Below are positions 734-44,105 of a stretch of 57,319 nt of DNA, piece after piece. Position 1 is the stretch's first letter; each line of letters begins with the position of its first letter. The notes beneath the pieces are model-generated. The model was not told the DNA's origin. It saw only the letters and a list, made by a program, of their open reading frames with translations, and did not search any database. A program made the position numbers and the translations under genes. Source of the stretch: Nanobdellati archaeon (lineage in GTDB: Archaea; EX4484-52; WAPT01); the NCBI GenBank assembly GCA_027038505.1, contig JALVWC010000008.1, positions 1-57,319 on the forward strand, given 5' to 3'.

Positions 734-1538
734 CAGTCTCCTCCAATATCTCTTATCTCTTTTAATAATTGCTCAGCTTCATATTTTATGTTGTTCACGT
801 TCTCTACTTCCACCCAAGTTCGAAGTTTTCCCTTAGTAATATTAATGGTACGTTGACTTCTACCAACTTTCACAACGATACTGATCTCCTCATTTTCATC
901 ATAGATACACCCAATATCGCTTAAATTATTGTTTTCAAATGCCTGCTTTATTTTATTTGCTAATTGTAAAAACCTGTTTCTCTTTGATTTTATTGAAACT
1001 TCTACATACATCTCATCTTCATTTTCAATTTCCACTTTCTCTAATCTCCTATCCACATCTGTTGGCTTTTTTGGTATTTTTATCTTAAATTCCATTATCG
1101 GGTTATTCAACAACCCTTTTAATCCAAGAATTACAGGTTCTATTTTAACATCTAAACCCCAATCTTTAAGTGCACATGAAAAAATTGATCTTACGCCAAT
1201 ATTGCCTATCCTTTGAAGTATAAGATACCCCCTTCTGGTGCTGTTGTCATACTCAATAAGGTAAAAATAATCATAAAGTGGTGATTCGTTTGGCTCAATT
1301 GTTTTAGTTATTTGTTGAGTGTCTACATTTACAACTGGACTTTTTGCACCATATCTGCCATATTGAATACAACCCCATGCCTTGTTATCTCGGATGTTTA
1401 CTGAGTTTAATATGAGAGTAGTTTGGTCTTGGTCGTCTATATATCCATTCCTTTGTTATTTTGTAAGAAATTTAAGAAGTCTTGCTCACTATCTCCAACA
1501 ATTTCAAATCTATATGGAGCCAAGAAGTTTCTTGGCAT
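733..1538 (-). pseudogene. Frameshifted orphan protein (~268 aa if repaired), no recognised family
   Basis: ATG at 1538..1536 lies 1 nt after the hsdS stop and opens MPRNFLAPYRFEIVGDSEQDFLNFLQNNKGMDI*, with the stop at 1439..1437. The -1 frame is open from 1455 to the stop at 733 with no ATG/GTG/TTG before 1113, and reads ..GYIDDQDQTTLILNSVNIRDNKAWGCIQYGRYGAKSP..LLNNPIMEFKIKIPKKP.. The track lists only its last 126 aa (733..1113). Confidence 0.6.
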
Positions 1539-1539
1539 C

Positions 1540-2784
1540 TTACAACCCCTCCACTCTCAGTCTGCCAAACACTAACTGAGGCAGTAGTGTATCCTGAATC
1601 TTTTTTAAAATTATTATTTCTTTCTGATTATTTATTATTTTCTTGAAGATAGGTTCGACGAGAAAATGGAAGCGTTGAAGGATCGATTGTGGTGGAAGCA
1701 GAATCTTAATACTTTCCAATTCAGGCTTTGTTATAGCATCAAAGGTAGTTCCTCTTTCAAAGGATTTTAAAATTTCATTATATGTCTTCAGATAAACATA
1801 TAAAAATGTCCAAAATTCACTTCTTAGGGCTGCTATGCCCCTTCCAATGACATATTCTCTATCTGCAATATTTAGCTCTCCCACGGGTGCTCTTACAGTT
1901 ACCAATATATCAAATGGTTTTGCCATCTTGCTAATTTGGGTGCTATATGTATCTGTATGTGGTGTATATTGTCCAAACTGCCCCTTTCCCTGAATAAATG
2001 GCAACCCTCTTCCTTCTTGGTTATAGTATTTAGAAGGTGGAGATTGCCCCATTATAACTTCAGCTATATTTTTTAACTCTCTGATTTCCCAACCCTTTGG
2101 AATCTCCATGTCCAGCTCCTCGTTATAAACGAACTCCTCATCTTGGAAAGGCTCAAAATCGATGAACCAGCTTTTGAATATCGCCATCGCCATCTTTTCC
2201 AGAATCTCGTTCTGCTTGCGTTTGTTCTCTATGAGGTCGTCGAACCATGAAAGAACGGTTGCGATGCGGGTTTGTTCTTCTGGGGGTGGGTAAGGGATTT
2301 CCAACTGTTCTAAAGCGTCTTTGGGCACACGTTGCCTCCCACTTGTACCAGTCATAGTATATTGCAATCCTTCTCTAATAACTGGAAACTTAAAAAAATA
2401 GAACAGGTAAAGTAAATCCACCATATCGTCTTTTGGAAGGATTGAAAAGACTTCAATCGTAGCTACCCACTTATAATTACTCTCTTTTGGAACAATACAG
2501 CTTTTTCCATGCTCAAACGATGGGGTTATCTTAGCTAATAGTAATGAACCTGAGAAAACCTCAATTCCGCTTTTTACTTCATTTGGATTCTTTACCTCAA
2601 ATTTTGGGTAAAGACCATCTTCAGGAATATTTTCCATGCTGATGAATGCGATTGGCTTTTTGTCAGTATTTCTTGGTTTTTTATTAATTTTAATAACCTT
2701 TCCGAGTTCCTTAGTCTCCCAATCCTTCGGCATCTCCCCAATCTCCGTTTCCCTGAACTCCATTTCCCATCTGAATTTGACCAT
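1540..2784 (-). CDS. hsdS: Type I restriction-modification specificity subunit (two target-recognition domains)
   Basis: 414 aa with two repeated halves. Conserved central helix EEQTRIATVLSWFDDLIENKRKQNEILEKMAMAIFKSWFIDFEPF and C-terminal helix IINNQKEIIILKKIQDTLLPQLV. GGAGGT SD 7 nt upstream of the ATG. Confidence 0.9.
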   Translation of the reverse strand: MVKFRWEMEFRETEIGEMPKDWETKELGKVIKINKKPRNTDKKPIAFISMENIPEDGLYPKFEVKNPNEVKSGIEVFSGSLLLAKITPSFEHGKSCIVPKESNYKWVATIEVFSILPKDDMVDLLYLFYFFKFPVIREGLQYTMTGTSGRQRVPKDALEQLEIPYPPPEEQTRIATVLSWFDDLIENKRKQNEILEKMAMAIFKSWFIDFEPFQDEEFVYNEELDMEIPKGWEIRELKNIAEVIMGQSPPSKYYNQEGRGLPFIQGKGQFGQYTPHTDTYSTQISKMAKPFDILVTVRAPVGELNIADREYVIGRGIAALRSEFWTFLYVYLKTYNEILKSFERGTTFDAITKPELESIKILLPPQSILQRFHFLVEPIFKKIINNQKEIIILKKIQDTLLPQLVFGRLRVEGL

Positions 2785-2797
2785 AAACCTCTACCTC

Positions 2798-3460
2798 CTA
2801 TGAGCGGTATATATTCAACGCTTTATCCGGTCTTATTATACGAATATTATATGCATCACGTAAAGCTTTGTTCAGCTTTGTAAGGTATCCATCCATCGTA
2901 ACAAAATAATCTGTGTCTTCAAATATCGCAGTAGTGAGAAGTAGTGCGTCCTGGGTTGTCAGTTCGGGATTGTAGAAAATTAAGGAAGAATATACCTCAA
3001 AGAAATCTGGAAATGCTGAAGGAGTGGCAGTTGGTATAATTCCTATAACTTCCGTCCTAAATAATACATCAAATCCTTCTAACGTAAGTTCATATATCCT
3101 CTTTCCAACTTTTTCTGGGATAGTTGCCTCTCGTGTTTCCCGTCGTGATATCCATCTCGAAAGAGGTATCCCTTTATTAAGCATAATTACCGTTCTAGCT
3201 TCTTCTCGAACTCCAGAGAAAATTTCACTCAGTGAAAACTCCACTACTACAACATCTTTATTCTCTCTTGGATTTGATAGAACATAGTCAATAAATCTAA
3301 CTGACTTTTCATATCTTTTATCATATACTCTCTTGAATTCAGGAGATAACTTCTGCTCGGTGATTATGTAACCTATTATCTTATGGGACATCAACCAATG
3401 AACTAAAACATTACTGTCTATGACAAATCTGGTCATTTCTCTTTTAGCTATCTCGCTCAC
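2798..3460 (-). CDS. PIN-domain protein (putative ribonuclease), 220 aa
   Basis: The acidic residues are spaced as in PIN domains: FVIDSNVLV, VVVEFSLSEI, TTQDALLLTTA, YFVTMDG. GTG start overlaps the stop of the upstream micro-ORF (GTGA at 3457..3460). An alternative start is M9. Confidence 0.7.
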   Translation of the reverse strand: MSEIAKREMTRFVIDSNVLVHWLMSHKIIGYIITEQKLSPEFKRVYDKRYEKSVRFIDYVLSNPRENKDVVVVEFSLSEIFSGVREEARTVIMLNKGIPLSRWISRRETREATIPEKVGKRIYELTLEGFDVLFRTEVIGIIPTATPSAFPDFFEVYSSLIFYNPELTTQDALLLTTAIFEDTDYFVTMDGYLTKLNKALRDAYNIRIIRPDKALNIYRS

Positions 3461-3603
3461 CCCTTCTTTTTCTTCTTATAGCTCCATAAACCCTTAATTT
3501 GACCTGCTCTACCATATTTTGTCGTTCTTTGTCGGATAGAATAATATTTTTTGGTTACCGGATTGTAGATTCTCTTTTTCTTGGATTTCTTTTTGGCAGT
3601 CAT
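3457..3603 (-). CDS. Unannotated 48-aa lysine-rich micro-protein, possible PIN partner
   Basis: Below the ORF-track size cutoff. My translation is MTAKKKSKKKRIYNPVTKKYYSIRQRTTKYGRAGQIKGLWSYKKKKKG*: 19 of 48 residues are K/R and none are D/E. GGTGA SD sits 6 nt upstream of ATG 3603. The stop overlaps the PIN start. Confidence 0.5.
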   Translation of the reverse strand: MTAKKKSKKKRIYNPVTKKYYSIRQRTTKYGRAGQIKGLWSYKKKKKG

Positions 3604-3668
3604 TTTAATTCACCAAATACAAAGTATATTCCCTAAAATCTGAGACTTTGATATTTTCTCATAATATA

Positions 3669-5303
3669 TCATGCCTCCAGCTTATATCCTATATCAACTC
3701 GTTTTTTAATCTCAGTTAATATAGCCCTCTTTCTCATTTTGATAAAGCATTCTATATCATCCCTTAAGAGACAATCAAGAGCTTCTTCGGGTATCAAGTG
3801 AGTCTTCAGAATTTCCTTAACTTTTTCTTTCCCCATACTTTCAATAAGTTCCTTAAAATACTTTGATGGTCTCTTAGAGGATTTCTTTTGATTTGTAGAT
3901 ATTAAGGTTTTTACAACAACTCGATTATCTTTGAACATTGATTTTGGGAAAATATGATCAATTTGAACTTTTTCTATTTCAAATTTTGGTGACTGTCCTG
4001 TTCGGAAGTCCAACGCTCCTTTCAGAGCTATCAAACATAACACTGCCTTGTGAATAGCTGAATAACTACTCTCGACATCTAAGTCCACTTCATTGATATT
4101 GAATTTTGTTATGAAGTTTGGTACTTTGCCATTCAAAATCCATTCTTTGAAATCTTTCAAATCCCTAAATGACTTAGTATCAACCGCTTGGTCATATCTC
4201 TTGGAGAATACTGACGCCCAATACCAGCGGTCTATTTTTTCATAGTTTTCTTTAGTGTCAAGACTATTCTTTTTCAGAAAGTGTATCATTGCAGCCATGG
4301 GGATCAGCATTGTAGTGTATGGCATCCATTTATCAAACTCTAAAACACCATAACTGTCTTTTGTTCGTCTGTATGCTAATTCTAACATTTTACATGCTGT
4401 TTCCCAGTCTCTCTCAAAATCTACTTGAGATAAATTAAGTACATTTGCACGTTTTGGTTCTATCCCCCGTATTAATGCTATTGTTTTGAGGATAAATTCC
4501 TCTTTGACGTACTTTATGAATTCATACTTGCCCTTTGATTGTTTAAGCAATTCTCTTAGTTTTATTCCATGATTATATAATCTTGCAGTTAACAAGTCAA
4601 ACAGAGAAAGTAGAAGCCCAGTTCTATTTATTCTCTCAAATGTTTCCACTATTTTCTCCAAGGGAGTATCCGCAGGCAAGGTGACTACATGAACCTTATA
4701 CCCCACAATTCTACTTGCAATCTTCATTATCTCACGGAATTTGGGGTGATCACTGAATTTTTCAATTATTACATCCAAATCTCGTAGGTCTGAAAAAGCG
4801 ATTATGTTCTCATCTTCTTCTAGCTTTTGAATTTCCTTTCTATAAAAAGTGCTCTTACTAATAACTGCATCTTCCCATTCTCCATTTAATGCTTTCTCAA
4901 TATCAAGGTAAAATCTGTGAGGGTGTCTTGATTCTCTTAATGGTATTTCTGGCTGGTAAAACGCATAAAAGAGAGAAGTTATTCTTTGCTGACCATCAAG
5001 TATAACTTTTACCACCGATTGTATTTTAGCCTGAGGATTGACTTCTTTAACCCCCTCTATAAGCCTTAATGCAAATGGTGCTTCATTAAGCGTTGGATCT
5101 TTGCTGTATGTGGTCTCTAACCATAGAATTGAGTCTATATAGTATCCCCCCACAATAGAAACTAATAATTCCCTAACATCTTCTGGATACCATACAAAGC
5201 TTCTTTGAAAATCTGGTATTACTATTTTTCCTGTATATACCTCCTTTAATAACTCTCGAAGCTCAATCTTGGCAGGATCCATATTCTCAACTCTCCAACC
5301 CAT
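3669..5303 (-). CDS. DUF262 (ParB-like NTPase/nuclease N-domain) plus DUF1524 (His-Me finger) protein, GmrSD-like type IV restriction family
   Basis: N-terminal IPDFQRSFVW and LDGQQRITSL motifs; C-terminal QIDHIFPKS. ATG 5303 overlaps the hsdM C-fragment by 17 nt. An alternative ATG at 5282 lies 4 nt after that stop, with GGAG upstream. Confidence 0.8.
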   Translation of the reverse strand: MGWRVENMDPAKIELRELLKEVYTGKIVIPDFQRSFVWYPEDVRELLVSIVGGYYIDSILWLETTYSKDPTLNEAPFALRLIEGVKEVNPQAKIQSVVKVILDGQQRITSLFYAFYQPEIPLRESRHPHRFYLDIEKALNGEWEDAVISKSTFYRKEIQKLEEDENIIAFSDLRDLDVIIEKFSDHPKFREIMKIASRIVGYKVHVVTLPADTPLEKIVETFERINRTGLLLSLFDLLTARLYNHGIKLRELLKQSKGKYEFIKYVKEEFILKTIALIRGIEPKRANVLNLSQVDFERDWETACKMLELAYRRTKDSYGVLEFDKWMPYTTMLIPMAAMIHFLKKNSLDTKENYEKIDRWYWASVFSKRYDQAVDTKSFRDLKDFKEWILNGKVPNFITKFNINEVDLDVESSYSAIHKAVLCLIALKGALDFRTGQSPKFEIEKVQIDHIFPKSMFKDNRVVVKTLISTNQKKSSKRPSKYFKELIESMGKEKVKEILKTHLIPEEALDCLLRDDIECFIKMRKRAILTEIKKRVDIGYKLEA

Positions 5304-6891
5304 ATCCTAATGTTTCAAAAATCTCTCTCACTTTTGCCGTGAGTTCTTTTTCCCGCTTCAAGAGCTCGGCTAATTCTTTACTGTATTTTCTCATCTTCTC
5401 TTCAAATGTCCTCTGATCATCTAACTCCAGCTTAACTCCGACATATCTTCCCGGTGTCAAAACGTAGTTATTCCTTGCTATCTCCTCTATTGTCGCAACC
5501 TTAGCAAACCCCACCTCATCTATCTTGTCAAGCTCTCCCTTCTCAAAAAGCCTGAACTCCTCAACTATTTTCGCTATATGCTCGTCAGTCATTACATTCT
5601 ACCTTCTTGAAATCGGTGTGTAAAGATCCTTGGCATTTACGAAAAGCACCTTCCCTTTCATGTATTCTGGCTTTTCCTTCCTAACGAACCAAAGAGAAAC
5701 TGGCAACGATACGTTGTAGAATAGCTTTGGTGGACAGGCAACAATTCCGTAAACGAGATCAGTCTTGACTATCGCTTCTCTTATCTCTCCCTCTACACCA
5801 CCAGCCGACAGTGCTCCATTTGCCATAACGAAGCCAGCTTTTCCATTCGGTGCTAAATGGTAAATGAAGTGAAGAATCCACATATAGTTTGCGTTGCTGT
5901 TTGGAGGGACAGGCACTCTAATTCCGTTTATCCTCAATCTTGGATCATCAGGATTAATCCTTTCAGCACCCCACTCGCTGTCGTTAAAAGGTGGATTGGA
6001 AGTTACATAATCAAACCTCATGTCGTGAAACTTGTCATCGTGATAGGAGTCGCCAACTTTTATATCTCCTTCAACTCCCCTAATGACAAGATTCATCCTC
6101 GTAAGCTTCCATGCCATCTGATCTGAATCCTGCCCATAAATCTGCAATTCAAATCTGTCAATTCCTTCCCTTTCAAGCTTTTCTATCGCTGAAACAAAGA
6201 AACCCCCACCCCCACATGCAGGATCGAACATCCTCCCTCCTTTAATGTCCAAGACCTCAACTATAAGCTTTGTAAGACAACGGGGTGTGTAAAACTTACC
6301 ACCCCTCTTCCCTTCAACCTCAGTAAACTTTCCTAAGAAATACTCGTAGATCCTGCCAAAGATGTCTCTCGCCTTGTGATCGTATCCGAAATCTATCTCC
6401 GAAAAGAGGTTGATTAGATAGGTTAAATCATAGTGGTCAAGGTTTGAATTTACATACTCCTTCGGTATCACACCCTGCAACTGCTTTGGATACTTATTTT
6501 CTAAGATTTCGATAGCATTTTCTATGATCTCCGCAATGTTTGGTTGATTCGCATTATTCTTCAGATAATCCCATCTTGCCTCCTCTGGAATGTAGAGAAC
6601 GCCAGCTTCGAGGTAATAGTCCTCGTCCTCTAAAGTAAGCTCCCTCAATTCTGTATCATCTATGTAATATGGGCTATTCTTATCGGAAAACAACCTTTTC
6701 AACTCGTTTCTTCTTTCGTAAAATGCGTAAGAGAGATAACGCAGGAAGATAAGGCCAAGAACTATGTATTTGTGCACTTCTACCTTTTTCCTTAGCTTGT
6801 CTGCCGCCTTCCAAAGCTGATTTTCAAAATCAGGTGTGAGTTCATGAAGTTTGGAGTTATCAGCATCCACGAAATTACTGACCTTTGTCAT
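5287..6891 (-). pseudogene. hsdM: Type I R-M N6-adenine DNA methyltransferase subunit, split by an in-frame TAG at 5599..5601 (430-aa plus 101-aa fragments)
   Basis: Motif I FDPACGGGGFF and motif IV TSNPPFN. Read-through gives ..DLYTPISRR*NVMTDEHIAKIVEEF..IEEIARNNYVLTPGRYV, a normal contiguous HsdM C-terminus in the same frame. Confidence 0.85.
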
Positions 6892-9554: not shown

Positions 9555-9990
9555 AAGCATCAGCATAAAACCAGAAACCAAAGCCATAAAAGAAAAAGCC
9601 AAAATAGAAGGGAGTTGCATTTCTTAAAAGCTTCTTAACGGGAGATACCGCAGTATGACTGCTAAGTATTGCACATTCCAATAGAGAGTGACAACCGGAG
9701 TTTGGCTGCGGCATCTCCGTCTGCACCTTCTTCCTGCTGACAGCCTGAATTAATCACAAGATAAATATATAAATGTTGTGGGTGTGCCGCTTTGGCGGTA
9801 TCTGTTGTTTGGTTGGATGTTCTGATCATGAAAGAGAAGAGCGCTTGAGGATGTTGCCTGCCGGTTGCGTTTCACCGAAATGGTATTAAGGCTGTTGAGC
9901 GCGACCTTGGAGCTTTCGTTGTAGTTCCCGCGTCATTAAAGGAAAATTTAAAAAAACATGCTTCAATTAAGTTATTGAATCTTCTTGCGC

Positions 9991-10068
9991 GGTCCGGTAG
10001 CTTAGCCTGGTCGGAGCGCCCGCCTGATAAGCGGGAGGTCGGGAGTTCAAATCTCCCCCGGACCACCA
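9991..10068 (+). tRNA. tRNA-Ile (anticodon GAU), CCA encoded
   Basis: Hand-folded cloverleaf: acceptor GGTCCGG/CCGGACC; D stem GCTT/GAGC; anticodon stem CCCGC/GCGGG with loop CTGATAA; variable AGGTC; T arm GGGAG-TTCAAAT-CTCCC; discriminator A plus CCA. Total 78 nt. Confidence 0.9.
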
Positions 10069-31488: not shown

Positions 31489-31546
31489 AGGGATTTTGGT
31501 TGAATTCAGGAAAAACCTTTTATTTTTCCACCCTCCTCTTCTGATC

Positions 31547-32065
31547 ATGGAAGTAAAAAACCACCTGTTGTACGGATTGCCGCATCCAAAAATCGCCTGC
31601 CTGCCGGTTGCCGATACCAACATCGTGACGTTTGCCTGGGCGATGCCTGTTGATGATGAAGCAAAGGTTCTCCCATATCCATGTGAAAGGGCAACTAACA
31701 GTTACGAGCTAAGTGAAAGGAGGAGAGAGTTGGTTCTTTGCATACCCGCAGCAGAGATGCTGAGAGAAGTGTGGTTCTGCGGGATGATGGGCGAGAGGAA
31801 AGTAAACAAAGTGGAAGAGCTCGGCATCCAGATGGAAAATGACGTGAAAATAAAGGCACACCACACTAAAGGATGTGCGGCATTTCTGGAATGCAGAGTG
31901 ATGGATTCAGCACCGCACAAACAATTCGGAGAGCATGCGGTGTACTTTGCCGGGTGTTATACTCATGGGCCGATGACAAACTCTTTGATAGAACATGGAA
32001 AGAAAATGCCAACATTTTGCTTCATGTTGGAGGTGGATTTTTCACAACCCCGTCGAGATTTTTGA
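31547..32065 (+). CDS. Flavin-reductase-like domain protein (putative)
   Basis: Pattern IVTFAWAMPV..ELVLCIP..GMMGERKVNKVEELG..CAAFLECRV fits the FMN-binding split-barrel fold. The start is uncertain; the track gives TTG 31496. Confidence 0.4.
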   Translation: MEVKNHLLYGLPHPKIACLPVADTNIVTFAWAMPVDDEAKVLPYPCERATNSYELSERRRELVLCIPAAEMLREVWFCGMMGERKVNKVEELGIQMENDVKIKAHHTKGCAAFLECRVMDSAPHKQFGEHAVYFAGCYTHGPMTNSLIEHGKKMPTFCFMLEVDFSQPRRDF

Positions 32066-33570: not shown

Positions 33571-34404
33571 TCAGGTTTTTATAACCGTACCAAGCCCCAC
33601 CTCTCCCATGAGCGCTCTCTTAACATATCCTGCCCTATTGCCGTTGATTATCTCCGCAACGATGCCCTCCAGTTCCATCAGCTCCTCGATTTTTCTTACC
33701 ATTCCCCCCGTCACGTCAAAGTACGCTGAACCGCTAAGCATATCCAGCACCTCTTTGACATTCTCTCTCGTTATTTCCTTTATCAGCTTTGCATCCCGGT
33801 GTTTTTTGGGGTCCTTATTATATATGCCATCCACATCGCTTGCGTGGATCAGCCTGTCAGGCCTCAGCTTTCTCGCAAGATACTTCATGATTTCATCTCC
33901 CGAAAGAATGCCGCCGCCAAGCTTTTTGTCATAAGCCGGCACACCGTAGAGCACGGGCACCAGCCCCACCGAGACCATACCTTCTATCGCCTCGATGTCC
34001 ATGTGGACAAGTTTCTCATTTTCAAGTACGGCGCTTGCTGAAGCCTGCACGGGCGTTGCGGGTACGTGATGATTTTGGAGGTAAGCGCATACTTTAGCGT
34101 TCAGCTCATTCTGGAGCCTCTGGATCTCAGCAAACCCCAGAAGCTTCCTTTCATACTCGTTTCCATTCAGAGCCTTGTAGAGCGTCGCCAGCACATGCCC
34201 GTAACTACCGGCCCCATGTATCAGAATGAGGGCGAGGTCTCTCCTCTCGTTCCATGCTTCCCCTATTTCCTTTGCGAGTCTCTTGACATTATCCTTGTGG
34301 AGTGTGGGCATCCATCTATTCTTGTAGGTTATTATGGATCCGCCAAGCTTCAGGATCGCGAACTCCCGGATCTCCCGAGCGTGGCCAACTTTATTCGTGG
34401 TCAT
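33571..34404 (-). CDS. ipk: Isopentenyl phosphate kinase
   Basis: Amino-acid-kinase fold motifs ILKLGGSIIT and IHGAGSYGH. ATG 34404 lies 1 nt after the ubiX stop with a GAGAGGTGGTG SD; the track start is 34428. Confidence 0.8.
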   Translation of the reverse strand: MTTNKVGHAREIREFAILKLGGSIITYKNRWMPTLHKDNVKRLAKEIGEAWNERRDLALILIHGAGSYGHVLATLYKALNGNEYERKLLGFAEIQRLQNELNAKVCAYLQNHHVPATPVQASASAVLENEKLVHMDIEAIEGMVSVGLVPVLYGVPAYDKKLGGGILSGDEIMKYLARKLRPDRLIHASDVDGIYNKDPKKHRDAKLIKEITRENVKEVLDMLSGSAYFDVTGGMVRKIEELMELEGIVAEIINGNRAGYVKRALMGEVGLGTVIKT

Positions 34405-34405
34405 G

Positions 34406-35041
34406 TCAGCACCACCTCTCATAATCATAGTTTACTCCTATCTGATCCATAACCTTGCCGATTATGTTTTTGATCATGGCTTCGCCTGAAGGAAAAACGA
34501 AATCCTCACGAAAGCTATCACTCGTGCTTTTGCTTACCTTAATCTTTCCTCCATAAAAGCTCATCACTATGGGGAGTATTACCGCACCTTCTTGAGCGAG
34601 TCTGAGCATGTTTTCGATGTGTGCTTTCCTCAATGGAGTTTCCCTGACACAGAGCACAAGCTTCCTGCCCTCCTTCAGAGTAACGCTCGCGGCCCTGATA
34701 ATGAGGTTCAGCTCAGCCCCACATGCAATCAAGGCGAGGGTTTTCATGCTGCATGGCAGCACCACCATTCCATCATGCCTGAAAGTTCCGGAAGATATAG
34801 GGGCACTGAGCTCATGCTCCCCATAAACATGATCGCTCCATTCTTTAATCCTGCTGATAAAGTTCTCCTCGCTTATCCCCATTTCATGCATGGCCACCCT
34901 CACCGCTCCCCGAGAACAGACGGTGTGAATCTCAAACATGCCGGTTTTCTTCAACTCCCTCAGGAACAGAACTCCGGCTGCAACACCCGATGCTCCCGTT
35001 ATTGCGACAACGATTCTTCTCCTCCCCATGCTTAGTACCAA
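34406..35041 (-). CDS. ubiX: Flavin prenyltransferase UbiX
   Basis: IVVAITGASGV, VVLPCSMKTLA. Confidence 0.85.
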   Translation of the reverse strand: MVLSMGRRRIVVAITGASGVAAGVLFLRELKKTGMFEIHTVCSRGAVRVAMHEMGISEENFISRIKEWSDHVYGEHELSAPISSGTFRHDGMVVLPCSMKTLALIACGAELNLIIRAASVTLKEGRKLVLCVRETPLRKAHIENMLRLAQEGAVILPIVMSFYGGKIKVSKSTSDSFREDFVFPSGEAMIKNIIGKVMDQIGVNYDYERWC

Positions 35042-35074: not shown

Positions 35075-35515
35075 TCATTCCAGTATTTCAACCACTCCGC
35101 TTGTTCCATTCACCCGGACCTTCCTCGCATCTCTCAGCTCACCGATGTTGATGCCATCGACACACGGAATCTCAGCGAGTATGCACCCCGTTGCAACTAT
35201 AGCTTCAGTCTCTTCATTAACTATTGCAAGAGGCGCGACCCCGTTCTTTTTAAGCCCGTAAATAACATAGGAGCCGACGGTGCTTCCCTTACCGTAAGGG
35301 AAAACGAACACCTTGTTGGCTATGCTCCTGCTGTAAAGCTCATGGCTCTTATCAATAACCCTGCCGGTTTTCAGATCGACGCCTCCGTAAAAGCTTATGG
35401 GCATCGCCGTAAAAATCACATCCCCTTCCGCTTCTCCATCCATAACAGGGTTTCCGCGGAGAACCCTGCGCGCACGATGCTCTGCAGCCACACCACCACC
35501 CCTATTACTTAACAA
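35075..35515 (-). CDS. Aconitase X swivel-domain protein (DUF126), phosphomevalonate dehydratase small subunit
   Basis: ISFYGGVD..G, PYGKGSTVGSYV, GVAPLAIV. Confidence 0.8.
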   Translation of the reverse strand: MLSNRGGGVAAEHRARRVLRGNPVMDGEAEGDVIFTAMPISFYGGVDLKTGRVIDKSHELYSRSIANKVFVFPYGKGSTVGSYVIYGLKKNGVAPLAIVNEETEAIVATGCILAEIPCVDGINIGELRDARKVRVNGTSGVVEILE

Positions 35516-36747
35516 AACCTCTTTATTATGTTTTCCAGCTTGTCGTAAAACACCACCTGGCTGTTCGTGTTTGGCAGATAGAACGCTGCCTTTGCGGAGT
35601 TCACAGCCATCTTTTTTATTCCGAGATCCTCAAGCGGAGCAACAACAGGACATGTGTCCGCTATTATTTTTACATTTAGCTTCTCCAGCTTATCAAGGTA
35701 TCCCGCCCTTTCCGCTATGCGCTTCACGGCCTCCGATGTGAAGACCCAGATAGGTACTCTGCTGCGTTTCCCGTTAAGAATGGAAACAAGGTTCTGTATT
35801 TCCGCTATGGAAGCGTGTGGACACCCCACAGCTATAACGTCAGCATCATCAACCTCAGAACACATTTCATCGTATGCCATGCGTATATCATCATTGTCAA
35901 CCTTAAGTCTGTCCTCTACGTCTTTCAGATTTTTGCCCGCATTCTCCGCTTCCGGTGTTATGCCCTCAATATGGAAGAGCGCAACAGCACCATAAGCCGC
36001 AAGGCTTGCGCCCAGAGCCTTAAGAGTGTCCTTATTGCAGGGTGATGTGCTCATTCCCTTAAAGTACGGAACCCCTTTTCCCATAACCTTACCCACGATA
36101 TAACCCAAAGCGCCGAAATCGGCGATGTCGCGCAGCTTTGCCTCCACCTCCACAAGGAAGGTTGGTGATCTGTTTTCCTCAAGATGCAATCCATACATCG
36201 GTGTTCTTCCGGTAATCGCCGCTGCCAGAGCGGAAGGGCCACCTTCCCTGTTGGTTCTTGCCCCCACCACAGAGTTGGCGAATGCCACAGCCGAGCTCTC
36301 ACTCCAGGCTATGTGCTCCCTGTAGCGGGGCAGAAGGCCCGCAAGGTAGGGAGTGCACGTACTTATTACCACAACCCCCATCGCTCTGAAAGCCTCCACT
36401 ATTCTGGTTTGCTTTTCTGCAAACTCCTCCGAAAAGCCGAGCTCCCTCCAGCCGTCAAGAGGCATGCCTGCCGGGTTCATGAACGCCGGAACTTTAACTC
36501 TCGCTCCTTCTCTCGCAAACCCTTCGAGGAACTCAAGCCCCGGATCCCCTATGTTCTTGTAGGAAACTCCGGCTATCTGCGCTGAGCCTATTCTCACCAT
36601 TCTCTCAGCGTTGAACTTCTCTCCCAGCTTCACAAGCAGCTTCATGCATCTTGCCACCACATTCCCATAACTGCCATCAAGCATCCTTTCCTCTTCTCTG
36701 GTTAGATACACGGAACAACACCCCGCATCCCTTTTGCGCACGAACAC
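35509..36747 (-). CDS. Aconitase X catalytic-domain protein (DUF521), phosphomevalonate dehydratase large subunit
   Basis: LTREEERMLDG, STCTPYL, AWSESSAVAFANSVVGARTNREG, GRTPMYGLHLEENR. Confidence 0.8.
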   Translation of the reverse strand: MFVRKRDAGCCSVYLTREEERMLDGSYGNVVARCMKLLVKLGEKFNAERMVRIGSAQIAGVSYKNIGDPGLEFLEGFAREGARVKVPAFMNPAGMPLDGWRELGFSEEFAEKQTRIVEAFRAMGVVVISTCTPYLAGLLPRYREHIAWSESSAVAFANSVVGARTNREGGPSALAAAITGRTPMYGLHLEENRSPTFLVEVEAKLRDIADFGALGYIVGKVMGKGVPYFKGMSTSPCNKDTLKALGASLAAYGAVALFHIEGITPEAENAGKNLKDVEDRLKVDNDDIRMAYDEMCSEVDDADVIAVGCPHASIAEIQNLVSILNGKRSRVPIWVFTSEAVKRIAERAGYLDKLEKLNVKIIADTCPVVAPLEDLGIKKMAVNSAKAAFYLPNTNSQVVFYDKLENIIKRFC

Positions 36748-36755
36748 TCAGGTCC

Positions 36756-37136
36756 TCACTCTTTTCTATTTCCCGCCTCTATTGCCCTCTTAACCACGAT
36801 AAGCAATTTATCGGCATTTTCGAGCACGAGCTTTATGTCGGATTCGGTTGCATCATTTATGTGCACGCCACCAGCACACAACACAGTTGTCTGAAAGTGC
36901 TTTGCAAGCTCCTCGGCAAATCTTCTCACGATCACCTCGTCTTTATGGCCAGGGACGTTAAATATCGATAGAGCTGAAGAACCGATCTTTCCATCCCTCT
37001 TCTCATAATGGGTTGCTATGCACACACATCCTATGTGTGGCTCATCCCCACCGCCGATCAGCACGATTATATCCTCGCCCATGCTCTGGATCTCCGCCCA
37101 GACAGCATGCCTTCCCTGACCCATCTCGATCCTCAC
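36756..37136 (-). CDS. LpdD-like protein (putative prenylated-flavin chaperone)
   Basis: LIGGGDEPHIGCV, PGHKDE and CAGGVHIN match my recollection of L. plantarum LpdD (GGTNPHIGDV, HKD, AGIHVN). ATG 37124 with a GGAGTGAGG SD is the likely start. Confidence 0.5.
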   Translation of the reverse strand: MRIEMGQGRHAVWAEIQSMGEDIIVLIGGGDEPHIGCVCIATHYEKRDGKIGSSALSIFNVPGHKDEVIVRRFAEELAKHFQTTVLCAGGVHINDATESDIKLVLENADKLLIVVKRAIEAGNRKE

Positions 37137-37208
37137 TCCGTGTCACCCCGACAATAAGGTCTTCACGGATTATTTCCGATGATGATAGATTCGTTTCACC
37201 TCTCCTCT

Positions 37209-38492
37209 TCAGCTAACTCTCCTGAACTCATCCTTTCTATCAACAGGAGCTGTCGCGTCGATTATCCATTTCGCCGTCACATGTCTTTCTGAGTCTTGGG
37301 ATGGATCCAAGGAAGAGCCCTTACAGTCGGGTATAACCACCACATCCCTATCGGGCTGAACCCTCGTTGCTATGGCCCATTCCACCTCTCTTTCGTCCGT
37401 GATATCTATGTCGTCGTCCACCACAACAACCCTTTTGAGGGAGGGGTGAGCAGCCAAAGCCGCCATTCCAACGTTCTTGCCCTCTCCCTCGACTTTCTTG
37501 GTTATTGATACCACCGCATGGAGCCAGCACCCACCGGCTTCGGTGAGCACCACGTTCTTTACTCTCGGCAGTGTGTTTGAAACTATCCTGAATATCCTCG
37601 GTTCCTGGGGTATGCCCATAAGATAGCGATGTTCCACACCGCCCGGTAGAATAGTGCGGTAAATGAGGTCATCCCTGAAATAAAGTTTCTCCACCTCCAG
37701 CACGGGTTGCTTCCTCACCACATCCCATGTGCCGGTAAGGTCAACGAACGGGCCCTCATCAGCGAGCTCATTCTTCTTTATCCTCCCGATCATCACCATT
37801 TCAGCATGAGCGGGAACATGAAGTCCGTCATCCAGCTCCACGCACTCCAATTTTCCATCAAGTAAAGAATTCGCAAACTCCATCTCGTTGAATCCGAAAA
37901 CGAACGATGTGGCAGCCGCAACCTCCACGGCCGGATGGACTCCGTTAAACACAGCCACATTAACATCATCGCTTTTCGCTCTTTCAAGAATTGCCGATAG
38001 GTGTCTGCCGGGTATTACCCTCAAAACGAACCTGTTCTTGCCCAGGTACATCATCCGATGGAATGAGTAGTTGAGTTTGCCCATTTCCTCATCCTTCGCA
38101 ACGATAATGGTGCTGGAGGTATAAAATGAACCATCCTTATCGTAAAATTTGAGCAGTGGCACGTACTTTTTTATGTCTGGGTTGTTGATTTCGTTTTCCA
38201 TGAAAGGCGCATCGCCCCTCAACCTGTAGGATTTGGGGGCATCCATACATGCGGTCATTCTCCGAATAATCTCACCCCTGTTCTTTGCGCCTATCGCTTT
38301 AGCTATGACATCCCTCGAGTTCAGGAGTGATGCCAAAACTCTCGCGTTGGGGTGGTTCTTCACCCGCGTGAAGAGCACGGCCCTCCTTTTCTTTTCAGCC
38401 CCGCAGATAAAAGGTGTCATTTCAAGTTCTGTGCTCAGATCCCTGTTGATTTCCTCCACTTCCTCCATTTCTTCAAGAAACTCACGCAACAT
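37209..38492 (-). CDS. UbiD-family decarboxylase (anhydromevalonate phosphate decarboxylase candidate)
   Basis: UbiD-like N-terminus MLREFLEEMEE..EINRDLSTELEM. About 427 aa. Context with ubiX and AcnX genes. The track starts at TTG 38540. Confidence 0.75.
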   Translation of the reverse strand: MLREFLEEMEEVEEINRDLSTELEMTPFICGAEKKRRAVLFTRVKNHPNARVLASLLNSRDVIAKAIGAKNRGEIIRRMTACMDAPKSYRLRGDAPFMENEINNPDIKKYVPLLKFYDKDGSFYTSSTIIVAKDEEMGKLNYSFHRMMYLGKNRFVLRVIPGRHLSAILERAKSDDVNVAVFNGVHPAVEVAAATSFVFGFNEMEFANSLLDGKLECVELDDGLHVPAHAEMVMIGRIKKNELADEGPFVDLTGTWDVVRKQPVLEVEKLYFRDDLIYRTILPGGVEHRYLMGIPQEPRIFRIVSNTLPRVKNVVLTEAGGCWLHAVVSITKKVEGEGKNVGMAALAAHPSLKRVVVVDDDIDITDEREVEWAIATRVQPDRDVVVIPDCKGSSLDPSQDSERHVTAKWIIDATAPVDRKDEFRRVS

Positions 38493-38645: not shown

Positions 38646-39719
38646 TCACTTCTCCCCCTCAACCCTCACACCCTCAGCTCCCATCTCAGATATCATAACA
38701 CGGGCTGCAACTTTTTTCAGTGCTTTCTCAACCTTTTCAGCATTTCTTTCCTCCACAAGGGCTATGGCTATCCCCCCACCGCCTCCCCCGGAGGGCTTAA
38801 CCCCAAGAGCTCCTGCCTGTCTTGCCGCACCCATAATCCGCTTGAGCTCCGCCGTAACTATCGGAACGAAATTCTCAAAAACCCCGAACCTTTTGTTAAC
38901 TTCCATGCTTACCTCATCGATCTTCTCAAGCAGCTCGGCGTTCCTGTTCATCAGCTCTCCAAGCGCTATCCAATCACCCTGCCTGAGAGCCGAAATTCCA
39001 TCCGTCACAACCTCATCTATCCCGTCAAAGATCTCTTCGTACGCATCGCTTTCAATTTCTCTCAGCTTTTTTATCTCGCCAACAGTCACCGCGGTCAGGG
39101 CCTTAACACCCGTGTCGGCTATGATTATGGTAGGCATTTCACTTCCCCCAACCTCGACCCGCTCCATTTCGATGGGGAGTTCCCCCGCTCCCTTTCTTTC
39201 CTTTCTCCTCACGATGTGTACCCCGCCGAAAACGCTCGATGCAAACTCAGCCCCGCTTGCGGCTCCGCCATGTATTCGCTCCTGGAACGGCAACAGGAGC
39301 TCGGGGTATTTGGAGGTGTGGATGCGCCAGTCGTAGAGGGCATTTATCGCATGAAAAAAAGCCGAAAGGAATGCCGTTGAGCTGCTGAGCCCTCCACTTT
39401 CAGGCGGGATCTCGCTGCTTACAGTTATATTTGCTCCATGCTCCATACCGTATGTCTGGTGAGAGAACTCAAGAAGCTCGGCCGCAGGCTTCATCACATC
39501 GTCACACCGCTTAACCGCAAAACATGAGCCTTCGAGTTCCGCAAGGATCTTGCCATAGCCGGCCGAGCTGACAACCACTCGGTTCTGGGGAATCTTTTCA
39601 GCCGTAACCCTGGTTCTGAGATTCACCGAGGTCACCAGCGCTCTCCTGCCGTAGACAACGGCATGCTCCCCCATGAAAAACACGTTTCCCGGAGCGGATG
39701 TGGTGATGAGTTCTTTCAT
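38646..39719 (-). CDS. mvk: Mevalonate kinase (GHMP family)
   Basis: SAPGNVFFMGEHAVVYG, PPESGGLSSSTA, SGGGGGG. ATG 39719 is preferred over 39749. Confidence 0.85.
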   Translation of the reverse strand: MKELITTSAPGNVFFMGEHAVVYGRRALVTSVNLRTRVTAEKIPQNRVVVSSAGYGKILAELEGSCFAVKRCDDVMKPAAELLEFSHQTYGMEHGANITVSSEIPPESGGLSSSTAFLSAFFHAINALYDWRIHTSKYPELLLPFQERIHGGAASGAEFASSVFGGVHIVRRKERKGAGELPIEMERVEVGGSEMPTIIIADTGVKALTAVTVGEIKKLREIESDAYEEIFDGIDEVVTDGISALRQGDWIALGELMNRNAELLEKIDEVSMEVNKRFGVFENFVPIVTAELKRIMGAARQAGALGVKPSGGGGGGIAIALVEERNAEKVEKALKKVAARVMISEMGAEGVRVEGEK

Positions 39720-40111
39720 ACGAACACCACGAACTTTTATTTTCGGCATTTGATGAATATTAAGTTTGCCGTTTCCAAAAAATTTAAATACTATCCTTCT
39801 CTATTTCATTTACCGTCGAATTAAGTTTTAGACAATTGTTGAATGGAGGGTGTTGAGATGAAGGTGCAGATGGCCGATATAAACTTCTGGGGGATCAAGG
39901 TTGTGAGTAAAAATACAAAGTCGAAAAAATCGCAGAAAAATTGAAAGGTGAATAGCTGTTGGGTCTTTAGCCAGATCACATACGAGAGCTTCCCACAGCA
40001 AGACCAACAAATAATTTAAAGATTGGACACGAGGAGGTAAACCTGTGCATACTTCCTCTCCATACTGCGCCATAAGCGGAGCTTCCGAAAGGTCATAAAA
40101 GCGATGGGTGT

Positions 40112-41440
40112 TTGATCGTGGAAGAAGACGGAAAAGGAAGCAGGCTTGGTAAGGCTCGGACATCACGGATAAGCGGATTCTACAAGCTTGGCATTGAGGA
40201 AAGGAGAAAGTTCGTTAAGGACTTTGCCAACCTTTCGGATGATGAGATAAAGCTTTTTGACGGCGCTTTATCAATTGATCTTGCTGACAAGATGATAGAG
40301 AACGTCATAGGAAAGATGGAACTCCCTCTCGGTGTTGCGGTCAACTTTCTCATCAACGGAAAGGACTACCTCGTTCCGATGGCTCTGGAGGAACCGAGCG
40401 TTGTGGCTGCTGCATCACACATGGCAAAGATCGCAAGAGAGAATGGAGGTGTAAGGGCTGAAGCTTCAGATCCCGTCATGATAGGACAGGTTCATCTTGC
40501 GCAAATTGATGATGTGGAAGGTGCCAGGAAAGCCGTGCTTGAGAAAAAAGAAGAGCTGCTGAAGGTCGCTGAGGCACAGGACCCCACACTCCTCAAGTAC
40601 GGAGGCGGGCCTGTCGATATTGAGGCAAGAGTGGTGGAGCACGAGGAAGGGGAAAAATTTCTGGTTGTGCACCTGCTTGTGAATTGTGCTGATGCGATGG
40701 GAGCCAATCTTGTTAACACCATGGTTGAGGCTATAGCTCCGATCCTTGAGGAAATAACGGGAGGGAAAGCCATACTCAAAATCATAAGCAACCTTGCTGT
40801 GTACAGGATAGCGAGAGCAGAAGTAAAAATAAGACCAGAGACGATAGGCGGGGAGGAAGTTGTCGACAGGATAGTCTTGGCAAGTAAGATGGCTGAAGCT
40901 GATGTTTTTAGAGCGGTAACCCATAACAAGGGAATAATGAACGGAATAACAGCCATAGCCTTAGCAACGGGTAATGATACAAGAGCCATTGAGGCCGGAG
41001 CTCATGGCTATGCTGCAATGAATGGTAAATACAAACCTCTTGCCATCTGGAGGAAGGATGAGGAAGGTAACCTGGTGGGAAAGATAGAGCTTCCGATACA
41101 GGCCGGGATAGTTGGTGGAGCAACCCGTGTGCACCCTGTGGCAAAGCTAAACCTCAAAATCCTCGGTGTGGGAAGTGCAAGAGAACTTGCGGAGATCATG
41201 GCGGCTGTGGGGCTTCTGCAGAATCTTGCCGCTCTGAGAGCCATAGTTACCGAAGGTATACAACGCGGTCACATGGAGCTGCACGCAAGAAACCTGGCGA
41301 TAATGGCCGGAACTCCGACTGAAAAGGTTGATGAGGTTGCGGAGAGGGCTGTTGAAAAAGCCGGAAAAGAGGGCAGGAAGATGACCATGGATCTCGTAAG
41401 GGATGTGATGAAGGAATTGGGGCTTGAGCCCAAAAGCTGA
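40112..41440 (+). CDS. hmgA: HMG-CoA reductase, class II type
   Basis: ENVIGKMELPLGVA, VPMALEEPSVVAAAS, DAMGAN. The start is TTG 40112 or GTG 40118. Confidence 0.88.
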   Translation: MIVEEDGKGSRLGKARTSRISGFYKLGIEERRKFVKDFANLSDDEIKLFDGALSIDLADKMIENVIGKMELPLGVAVNFLINGKDYLVPMALEEPSVVAAASHMAKIARENGGVRAEASDPVMIGQVHLAQIDDVEGARKAVLEKKEELLKVAEAQDPTLLKYGGGPVDIEARVVEHEEGEKFLVVHLLVNCADAMGANLVNTMVEAIAPILEEITGGKAILKIISNLAVYRIARAEVKIRPETIGGEEVVDRIVLASKMAEADVFRAVTHNKGIMNGITAIALATGNDTRAIEAGAHGYAAMNGKYKPLAIWRKDEEGNLVGKIELPIQAGIVGGATRVHPVAKLNLKILGVGSARELAEIMAAVGLLQNLAALRAIVTEGIQRGHMELHARNLAIMAGTPTEKVDEVAERAVEKAGKEGRKMTMDLVRDVMKELGLEPKS

Positions 41441-41452
41441 GGGTGGAACCGC

Positions 41453-42505
41453 ATGAAGACAGATGGTAAATCCGGTATAGTCGGCTATGGATGTTATGTT
41501 CCGATGTACAGGATAAAGGTGGAGGAGATAGCGAGCGTGTGGGGTGAGGATCCTGAAAGAATAAAGAAGGGTCTGCTTGTGGAGGAAAAGGCTGTTGCCG
41601 GAGATGATGAGGACACAGCCACGATAGCGGTTGAAGCCGCAAAGAACGCTCTCAAAAGAGCGTGCATAAATCCTGATGATATAGGCGCAATTTATGTCGG
41701 AAGTGAGAGCCATCCTTATGTTGTCAAACCCACAGCAACGATAGTCGGTGAAGCACTGGGTGTTGGAAACAGTTACACAGCAGCGGATCTTGAATTTGCA
41801 TGCAAAGCAGGCACGGCCGGCATACAGATGTGCCTGGGACTGGTCTCCTCGGGCATGATAGACTACGGCCTTGCCATAGGGGCGGATACAGCTCAAGGAG
41901 CTCCGGGGGATGCCCTTGAGTACACTGCCGCTAGTGGTGGAGCTGCTTTCGTAATAGGAAGAAAAAATGTTCTTGCAAAGATAATAGCAACAGCTTCCTA
42001 TTCTTCCGATACTCCGGATTTCTGGAGGAGACCCATGCAGCACTATCCAAGACATGCAGCCCGCTTTACAGGAGAGCCCGCATATTTCAGGCATATAGGA
42101 GGAGCGGTCAAACTGCTTCTGGAGGAGACCAACCTCAGCATCTCTGATTTTGACAAGGTCGTGTTTCACATGCCTAACGGTAAGTTCCCGCTTAGAATGG
42201 CGAAGATGCTCGGCATTGAGAAGGAGAAGCTGGCAGACGGGTTTGTGGTCAGTAAGGTGGGAAACACTTATTCCGGCAGCAGTTTGCTCGGACTGTGCGC
42301 GACACTTGATAAGGCAAAACCCAAAGAGCTTATCTTGCTTGCTTCATTCGGTAGCGGAGCTGGTAGCGATGCCTTTGCGATAGAGGTAACCGACCTCATA
42401 GAGGAAAAAAGAGATCTTGCCCCCACGTTTGAGCGCTATCTCAACAGAAAGATTTACATAAGCTATGCAAAATACGCCAAGATGAGGGGTAAGCTGAAAG
42501 ACTGA
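41453..42505 (+). CDS. hmgB: HMG-CoA synthase (archaeal type)
   Basis: Active-site [10 protein letters not shown]. 350 aa. TGATG overlap with the thiolase gene. Confidence 0.88.
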
Positions 42506-43683
42506 TGGTAGTGATGCTTATGAAAAGAAGGGTATGCGTTATCGGTGTGGGGCTAACAAAATTCGGAGAACACTGGGGTAAGGGTTTTAGAGAGCTTGCG
42601 ATAGAAGCCGGAATAAAGGCAATAGAGGACGCTGGCATAAGCGGCAAAGACATAGATGCCATGTACATAGGCAACATGTCCGGCGGCAGGTTTATCGGGC
42701 AGGAGCACATAGCATCGCTCATAGCTGGAGAGCTCGGATTGAACATTCCCGCCACGAGGGTGGAAGCTGCATGCGCATCCGGAGGGCTTGCGGTCAGGCA
42801 GGCTTATCTCGCTGTACTTTCAGGAAAGCATGACGTGGTGCTTGTCGGCGGAGTGGAGAAGATGACCGATGTAAAAACGGGTGAGGCCGCGTTAACCCTT
42901 GCGGGGGCTGCCGATCAGGAGTGGGAGGGGTATCATGGAGTTACCTTCCCCGGCCTTTACGCTTTGATGGCAAGAAGACACATGCACGAATACGGAACAA
43001 CGAGGGAGCAACTTGCACTGGTGGCGGTCAAAAATCATGAGAATGCCACCAAAAATCCGATAGCTCAGTACCCGTACCCCATAACGGTTGAGAGTGTGAT
43101 CAGCTCACCTCCGATTGCTGAGCCTCTCAACCTGCTCGATTGCTCTCCCATAACGGACGGTGCTGCTGCTATCGTAGTATGTGCTGAAGATGTGGCAAAG
43201 AAGTTCACCGACAAGCTTGTGCATATAGCTGGGAGCGGGCATGCAACGGACACGCTCGCACTTCATGACAGAGAAAGCCTGACGGAAATAAAGGCAACAA
43301 AGCTTGCTGCAAAGATGGCTTATGAAGAAGCGGGAATAAAACCTGCTGACGTTGATGTTGCTGAAGTGCATGATTGTTTTACCATAGCCGAGATACTGGC
43401 GATAGAGGACTTGGGATTTGTGGATAAGGGTAAGGGAGGTAAGTTCGTGGAGGATGGCGAGACGAGGCTTGATGGTTCCATCCCCGTCAATACTTCCGGC
43501 GGGCTTAAGGCATGCGGCCATCCTGTTGGCGCTACCGGCGTTAAACAGATAGCTGAAATCGTGCTGCAGCTGAGAGGGGAAGCGGGAGAGAGGCAGGTTA
43601 AGGATGCAAGGATCGGACTTGCTCACAACGTGGGAGGGAGTGGTGCAACGGCCGTTGTGCACATACTGGAAAGAGAATGGTGA
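42505..43683 (+). CDS. Acetoacetyl-CoA thiolase
   Basis: VEAACASGG active-site Cys, [20 protein letters not shown]. Confidence 0.88.
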
Positions 43684-43703
43684 GAGCGGAGAGGTGAGCT
43701 GAG

Positions 43704-44105
43704 ATGAGCCACAGATCAAGCGTGCCCCTTGCATGGCGTAGGTTTGAAGCGAGGTACAGGCTTGTCGGGAACAGATGTTTAACATGCGGAACCATTTACT
43801 TCCCACCCAAGGCTATTTGCCCGAAGTGCAGGAGGAAGGGTAAGCTTGAGAAATACCAGCTGAAGGGAGAAGGCAAAATCCACACCTACACCATTATTCA
43901 CGCTGCTCCCTCTGGATTTGAGAAGCGCGTGCCATACTGCATAGCCATAATCGAGCTTGATGAAGGTCCCAAGGTGTTGGGAGAAGTTGTTGGAGATCTG
44001 ACGCTTCTCGACATCGGAGCAAGAGTCAGAGCTGTGTTCCGCAAGATATATGAGGATGGAGAGGACGGAATAATTCACTACGGGTTGAAGTGGGAGCTGG
44101 TTTGA
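43704..44105 (+). CDS. DUF35 OB-fold/zinc-ribbon protein (thiolase-HMGCS scaffold)
   Basis: CLTCGTIYFPPKAICPKCRRKG ribbon followed by an OB-fold; immediately downstream of the thiolase. Confidence 0.85.
   Translation: MSHRSSVPLAWRRFEARYRLVGNRCLTCGTIYFPPKAICPKCRRKGKLEKYQLKGEGKIHTYTIIHAAPSGFEKRVPYCIAIIELDEGPKVLGEVVGDLTLLDIGARVRAVFRKIYEDGEDGIIHYGLKWELV

Follow-up and report, generated by a model that had tools for sequence, protein, structure and literature searches.

The archaeal mevalonate pathway supplies the precursors of all archaeal membrane lipids; in E. coli it is under development as an isoprenoid route that saves ATP. One of its enzymes, anhydromevalonate-phosphate decarboxylase (AMPD), depends on prenylated FMN (prFMN), and the loading and maturation of this cofactor are a known bottleneck for UbiD enzymes. 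[quoted passage not shown]

A small protein concerned with prFMN has been described in Lactiplantibacillus plantarum. LpdD of this bacterium binds only reduced prFMN, supports the activation of apo-Fdc and apo-UbiD (PMC10865409; Gahloth et al. 2024, J Biol Chem 300:105653) and boosts the activity of LpdC when UbiX is limiting (PMC10865409). Its Mn2+ ligands are His35, His61 and Asp63, and a similarity to the proteasome assembly chaperones PAC3/4 has been reported for it (PMC10865409); no catalytic maturase role was found (PMC13040415). The LpdD paper mentions neither archaea nor mevalonate (PMC10865409), a 2024 survey of archaeal isoprenoid genes makes no mention of UbiX or of an accessory protein (PMC11052028), and our literature search found no paper tying LpdD to the mevalonate pathway. 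Here we describe an LpdD-family gene embedded in an archaeal mevalonate cluster.

An extra gene in an archaeal mevalonate cluster

The window, by which we mean the whole stretch of 57,319 nucleotides that was analyzed, carries on its minus strand an array in the order MVK, UbiD, LpdD, AcnX-L, AcnX-S, UbiX, IPK and aTrm56 (Table 1). The spacings between these eight co-directional genes are 105-153 (MVK-UbiD), 72, 8-44, -7, 33, -23 and 15 nt. Genes of the upper pathway, together spanning 40112..44105 (+), run divergently from the array. Since the array from MVK to IPK and the divergent upper-pathway genes are all present, the window holds a complete archaeal-type mevalonate cluster plus one extra gene. 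An earlier note on this DNA had placed an LpdD-like gene between the decarboxylase and the dehydratase of the mevalonate pathway, and profile searches bear out this order, with an AMPD-type UbiD on one side and AcnX-L on the other. The UbiD is 35-50% identical to archaeal UbiDs that adjoin AcnX, including those of Methanosarcinales. AMPD has no solved structure; the PDB entry nearest to the window UbiD, 6H6V, bears a generic UbiD-family decarboxylase name.

Table 1. Positions of features in the window; a minus sign marks genes on the complementary strand
Feature	Coordinates	Strand	Evidence
Thiolase	42505-43683	+	Pfam of called genes, identical public contigs L002/L003
HMG-CoA synthase	41453-42505	+	Pfam of called genes, identical public contigs L002/L003
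HMG-CoA reductase	40112-41440	+	Pfam of called genes, identical public contigs L002/L003
DUF35/OB-fold scaffold protein	43704-44105	+	Pfam of called genes, identical public contigs L002/L003
Mevalonate kinase (MVK, GHMP kinase), first in the array	38646..39749	-	GHMP_kinases_N/C and mevalonate kinase models, below equivalog cut-offs
UbiD-family decarboxylase, AMPD type, presumed chaperone client	37209..38492 (longest ORF to 38540)	-	UbiD_N/UbiD/UbiD_C; TIGR00148, 375 bits
LpdD-family small protein, putative prFMNH2-binding chaperone	36756..37136	-	PF21758, PDB phmmer, AlphaFold, Foldseek, metal triad
AcnX large subunit, phosphomevalonate dehydratase PMDh-L	35509..36747 (probable start 36711)	-	PF04412, E=1.7e-154
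AcnX swivel/small subunit, PMDh-S	35075..35515	-	PF01989, E=4.5e-34; NF003046
UbiX flavin prenyltransferase (prFMNH2 synthase), presumed cofactor donor	34406..35041	-	PF02441; TIGR00421, 175.6 bits
Isopentenyl phosphate kinase (IPK)	33571..34428	-	NF040647 IPPK_Arch, E=5.9e-77
Flavin-reductase-like gene, 4.7 kb from LpdD	31496-32065	+	PF01613 in the public call; PDB PH0856 FMN-binding protein, E=4e-9
tRNA gene, the only one in the window	9991-10065

The LpdD open reading frame begins with GTG in the ORF list of the window and encodes 126 amino acids, and in its translation LIGGGDEPHIGCV, PGHKDE and CAGGVHIN appear just as the earlier note had read them. The distances given there of 72 nt between the LpdD start (37136) and the end of the UbiD ORF (37209), and of 1.7 kb to UbiX on the same strand, are likewise correct. 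The gap of 8 nt between the LpdD stop (36756) and AcnX-L holds for the longest ORF start of the latter (36747) but not for its probable true start, GTG at 36711 (VYLTREEERML), which leaves about 44 nt; this start is suggested because position 1 of the Pfam AcnX model aligns to residue 13 of the 412-aa ORF. Both of the lengths proposed for LpdD correspond to existing starts, and public gene calls (P0001) begin the protein at the ATG at 37124, giving 122 aa, but we favour the 126-aa GTG form because a homologue with 61% identity opens with MRISVGEGRH and lacks a methionine at position 5. For UbiD, public calls place the start at 38492, giving 427 aa.

The LpdD ORF is real far beyond chance, as judged by its Pfam match (E=2.8e-32), 1008 representatives of related sequences and conserved synteny. 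Overlapping plus-strand ORFs at 36651..36971 and 37013..37216 are without comparable support. The exact protein is also encoded on contigs of GCA_054011715.1 and GCA_027081555.1, and the closest species-representative genome is WAPT01, 'Nanobdellati archaeon', at 93%. Neither of the intergenic regions flanking LpdD contains a terminator-like site, which counts for little as the consensus used is of the bacterial type and ill-suited to archaea; a scan of the window for promoters and terminators of this type likewise performed no better than on shuffled sequence. Most likely LpdD is expressed together with the genes of the lower archaeal mevalonate pathway, co-transcription being suggested by the gene spacing. 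Elsewhere in the window, positions 1-6000 have a G+C content of ~0.35-0.37 compared with 0.43-0.50 in the remainder, and could be a foreign or otherwise atypical segment.

Family membership, fold and metal site

The window protein matches Pfam PF21758 with 111.2 bits (cut-off 27), residues 7-116 aligning to positions 2-111 of the 115 in the model, and the same family is assigned to its public gene call. PF21758 is named LpdD_chaperone in newer Pfam releases and was formerly PAC_bac, 'bacterial proteasome assembling chaperone-like'; the source labels of family members include 'gallate decarboxylase subunit D' and 'prenylated flavin chaperone', in agreement with the statement in the earlier note that pipelines use the latter name. 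When all PDB chains were searched with phmmer, the only significant matches were to L. plantarum LpdD (8p4w, 8pzh and 8po5, E~1e-6), with 31.8 bits over query residues 9-110 and chain residues 10-107. A single-sequence word-index search retrieved nothing beyond the protein itself, and relatives were found only by a full HMMER scan, which returned 1008 cluster representatives at E<=1e-3. The LpdD family is missing from the NCBIfam models, among which the best match is to an unrelated phosphodiesterase (E=0.083); because of this gap, archaeal copies are labelled 'hypothetical protein'.

An AlphaFold2 model built with 67 homologues has a mean pLDDT of 95.7 and a pTM of 0.88, and consists of six strands and two helices. 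With this predicted model as query, the best six Foldseek matches in the PDB were LpdD chains (E 9e-8 to 2e-6, TM 0.76-0.84), followed by human PAC3/PAC4 and yeast Pba3/Pba4 (TM ~0.5-0.6, E 2e-5 to 7e-3). The PAC3/PAC4 Pfam models (PF10178 and PF16093) gave no match to the window protein at E<=0.01, so that the likeness to these chaperones is at the level of the fold. The protein thus appears as a PAC3/4-like beta-sandwich and is probably a homodimer.

Identity to the characterized LpdD is only ~22% over the structural alignment, yet the metal ligands H35, H61 and D63 align in the phmmer alignment to H34 (in PHIG), H64 and D66 (both in GHKD) of the window protein. All 67 homologues share H34, G36, G90 and H92, with H64 nearly invariant, and the His/His/Asp triad is kept in all ten canonical archaeal copies that are linked to mevalonate genes. 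Together with the linkage to UbiD and UbiX described below, the Pfam profile, phmmer, fold and triad give good support to the window protein being a genuine member of the LpdD family, as the earlier note had supposed from its motifs and as the HMM search that it proposed now confirms.

The triad and the fourth invariant histidine, H92, also resemble a catalytic metal site, and one could picture an enzyme that uses a metal to transform the cofactor or its precursors, either as an O2-independent maturase converting prFMNH2 to the iminium form or as a hydrolase or isomerase that makes dimethylallyl phosphate for UbiX out of intermediates of the pathway. The hosts come, according to their record titles, from anoxic hydrothermal and sediment samples, where O2-driven maturation is unavailable, and the archaeal mevalonate pathway itself passes through isopentenyl phosphate. 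Yet PhdC, the known maturase, is folded differently, like a flavin reductase (PMC13040415), and no hydrolase family matches the window protein, the sole NCBIfam match being the insignificant one given above, and we regard an enzymatic function of this kind as quite unlikely.

Gene context and distribution in archaea

The order MVK-UbiD-LpdD-AcnXL-AcnXS-UbiX-IPK-Trm56 is kept in relatives whose LpdD is 61% ('archaeon S5B5_HD70', L007/L095) and 41% (L011, GCA_054030615.1) identical to that of the window, and the gaps flanking LpdD in these two are 27/16 and 18/1 nt, respectively. The flavin-reductase-like gene of the window was considered as a PhdC-like maturase and rejected; neither L007 nor L011 has it at the corresponding position, so its closeness to LpdD is probably coincidental. 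The 61%-identity relative has an additional 87-aa ORF without a Pfam match between AcnX-S and UbiX (L007:12060-12323, +), which has no counterpart in the window.

The arrangement UbiD-LpdD-AcnX was also found in loci labelled Thermoplasmata (L107, L117, L118 and L124), Theionarchaea (L162), Aenigmatarchaeota (L109) and 'Nanoarchaeota' SZUA-1535 (L097), and LpdD lies in an operon with AMPD and PMDh in the window, L007, L011, L096, L097, L118, L124 and L162. In a neighbour-joining tree of UbiD, calculated without support values, the window enzyme groups with MAGs labelled Aenigmatarchaeota, and the LpdD-linked enzymes form two separate clades with LpdD in every sampled member: the first holds the window, L001, L095, L011, L109 and L097, and the second L107, L117, L118, L124 and L162. 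The corresponding tree of the 110-residue LpdD domain was too poorly resolved to decide whether the mevalonate-linked copies have a single origin.

For a family-wide view, species-representative genomes were scanned with a four-sequence LpdD alignment, and the resulting 80 loci (28 archaeal and 52 bacterial) were examined by searching their six-frame ORFs with an HMM and with phmmer. In 70 of them LpdD has UbiD or UbiX at a distance of no more than 3 kb, namely in 23/28 archaeal and 47/52 bacterial loci. LpdD directly follows a mevalonate-type UbiD in 10 of the 28 archaeal loci (L001, L095, L096, L097, L107, L109, L117, L118, L124 and L162), and AcnX comes next wherever the contig continues. 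Thirteen loci from Methanomethylicota have LpdD convergent, tail to tail, with UbiX (L103, L104, L108, L111, L115, L145, L147, L149, L157, L159, L165, L167 and L169), including the complete genomes of Ca. Methanosuratincola petrocarbonis LWZ-6 and Ca. M. verstraetei LCB70. In the MAG JACTUC01, separate scaffolds carry UbiD-AcnX (L027) and LpdD/UbiX (L108), so a genome in which LpdD does not adjoin AMPD need not be without it.

These arrangements bear on whether LpdD might be a stoichiometric structural subunit of AMPD, a 'subunit D' serving oligomer assembly or stability rather than transient cofactor delivery. A gene immediately 3' of UbiD, with few-nt gaps or overlaps and in two whole AMPD clades, is typical of the subunits of a complex, and the fold is one shared with proteasome assembly chaperones, whose binding partners are proteins. 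Nevertheless, the gene pairs with UbiX rather than UbiD in Methanomethylicota, as the two scaffolds of JACTUC01 illustrate, and in many bacteria; its most conserved residues belong to a putative surface metal or ligand site and not to an interface; and in L. plantarum gallate decarboxylase activity does not require LpdD, nor has LpdD been reported in a complex with the enzyme (PMC10865409). A structural subunit therefore seems unlikely to us.

Not all archaeal copies are found near prFMN genes. In Jordarchaeales (L009/L010:10001-10399, +, and also L099), a canonical LpdD with intact triad follows 7 nt after an aldehyde:ferredoxin oxidoreductase (AFOR_N/AFOR_C), with neither UbiD nor UbiX within 10 kb, a context that does not fit a prFMN role. 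Because some archaeal members lie so far from UbiD and UbiX, the family may have other clients. Such distant copies, the resemblance of the fold to Pba3/4 and PAC3/4 and the former Pfam name would suit an assembly chaperone of the PAC3/PAC4 type with no part in the mevalonate pathway, or a neutral passenger left in the cluster by historical accident. Either is highly improbable given that LpdD structures fit the model far better than PAC structures (TM ~0.8 versus ~0.55), that PAC3/PAC4 Pfam models do not match, that UbiD/UbiX linkage prevails among the family loci, and that the position between UbiD and AcnX is retained at an identity as low as 41% and also in another AMPD clade.

We also approached the question from the side of the decarboxylase, by collecting 80 archaeal loci anchored on AMPD-type UbiD from Nitrosopumilales, Bathyarchaeia, Micrarchaeota, Methanosarcinales, Methanomicrobiales, Methanomassiliicoccales, Thermococci, Desulfurococcales and others; the fetched flanks represent neighbourhoods and not whole genomes. 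AcnX-L directly follows UbiD in 36/80 of these loci and UbiX precedes it in 22/80, and a canonical LpdD was found in the fetched flanks of 0/80. The co-occurrence of LpdD and AMPD, a check that the earlier note had proposed, is real, but it is confined to two AMPD clades, with the separate LpdD/UbiX pairing in Methanomethylicota in addition. The idea that archaeal decarboxylation needs a dedicated prFMN protein agrees with the conserved operon position in some lineages but fails as a general statement, as the AMPD-anchored neighbourhoods indicate and as the M. mazei pathway, which works in E. coli with AMPD and UbiX and without LpdD (PMC12547664), confirms. AMPD decarboxylation does not generally need LpdD, which is an accessory of particular lineages and neither a universal component of the pathway nor a missing universal step.

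Two further observations came from this survey. In Aenigmatarchaeota (L016), 600 nt separate UbiD from AcnX; this gap was considered as a potential LpdD site and rejected, as the 226-aa ORF within it does not match the LpdD profile. AMPD-type UbiD also occurs in MAGs labelled as bacterial, namely L022 ('Deltaproteobacteria bacterium'), where it is accompanied by HMGR, AcnX-L/S and IPK, and L051 ('Anaerolineae bacterium'), either because the archaeal pathway was passed to bacteria or because the contigs were assigned to the wrong organism in binning.

Small ORFs without the metal triad were encountered beside AMPD as well. In 12 Nitrosopumilales/Thaumarchaeota loci (L065, L030, L037, L038, L058, L059, L072, L076, L078, L080, L084 and L087), a conserved ORF of 111-126 aa lies upstream of the AMPD-type UbiD and overlaps its start, for example at 9658-9999 (+) in L065, where UbiD begins at 9986. 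This ORF matches Pfam PAC4 with 38.4 bits (cut-off 31) and PF21758 weakly (E=0.056), and hhalign aligned it to LpdD weakly but in register (probability 25%, E=8e-4); the His/His/Asp triad is absent. By its sequence it may be a divergent partner of AMPD with the LpdD/PAC4 fold. A PF21758 relative (30.8 bits, cut-off 27) was also detected in the Candidatus Odinarchaeia MAG JAHQXC01 (L026:581-925, +), directly before UbiX-UbiD-AcnX-L. Its metal ligands are replaced, MFG, GVKD and SVF standing where the window protein has PHIG, GHKD and GVH, and this Asgard mevalonate cluster is the one among the 80 AMPD loci to have such a triad-less LpdD-like gene.

The two cases hint that small proteins of the PAC/LpdD fold recur beside AMPD. 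Three forms were seen in all: canonical LpdD in two AMPD clades, LpdD/UbiX pairs in Methanomethylicota, and triad-less relatives adjoining or overlapping AMPD or UbiX genes. It is a speculative and rather unlikely extension that proteins of the PAC3/4-LpdD fold are a recurrent, so far unrecognized accessory of the archaeal mevalonate decarboxylase. Were AMPD activation to depend on them, the pathway would gain a lineage-variable component, and eukaryotic PAC3/PAC4 might then have their origin in archaeal forms without the triad.

Proposed role and comparison with known systems

The window protein has the family signature, fold and conserved His/His/Asp site of LpdD, and its operon embedding recurs across diverged genomes. 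The biochemistry of L. plantarum LpdD (PMC10865409) and the gene context together make it, in our judgement, fairly probable that this protein is a cofactor chaperone for the adjacent AMPD. It would bind the reduced prenylated FMN (prFMNH2) made by the UbiX of the same operon, shield it from off-pathway one-electron oxidation and pass it to the apo AMPD encoded just upstream; delivery in this manner would raise the fraction of active holo-AMPD.

An operon-encoded cofactor chaperone suggests that some archaea overcome the prFMN bottleneck by means of LpdD, and offers an engineering part that can be tested at once, by supplementing constructs of AMPD and UbiX with the cognate LpdD. With it, the LpdD family reaches beyond bacterial aromatic-acid catabolism into a central biosynthetic pathway of archaea. 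What is new here is the pathway context of a known family, which is not conceptually surprising given the relationship of LpdD with UbiX and UbiD, and the impact is limited because the family and the proposed role have already been described and the association is found only in some lineages.

Compared with the published archaeal pathway, the window cluster has all the enzymes, and its UbiD-AcnX-L-AcnX-S order is that of MM_1526-1525-1524 in M. mazei. The published scheme is without an LpdD-like component (PMC12547664), as the earlier note had stated, whereas the window has an extra gene between AMPD and PMDh-L. The closest characterized protein, L. plantarum LpdD (lp_0272; 8PO5, 8PZO, 8PZH and 8P4W), shares with that of the window PF21758, the fold (TM ~0.8), the triad, the GxH motif, a length of ~125 aa and a location beside UbiX/UbiD genes. 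The two differ in sequence, to the extent noted above, and in host, bacterial as against archaeal. They also differ in their neighbours: the UbiD of the window is an anhydromevalonate-phosphate decarboxylase and the L. plantarum partner an aromatic-acid (gallate) decarboxylase, and the window gene stands between UbiD and AcnX whereas lpdD lies apart from lpdC and is transcribed together with lpdB, the UbiX homologue.

PAC3/PAC4 (yeast Pba3/Pba4; 2Z5B, 2Z5C and 8QYJ) have the fold of a beta-sandwich with two helices in common with the window protein (TM ~0.5-0.6), but these eukaryotic proteins show no significant sequence match and lack the His/His/Asp site, and the context of the window gene is one of flavin-cofactor enzymes and not of the proteasome. 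The PhdC/YclD maturases (PMC13040415) are likewise small accessories encoded in UbiD/UbiX operons that raise UbiD activity; unlike the window protein, to which they are not homologous, they have an HpaC-like flavin reductase fold and a catalytic, oxidative role.
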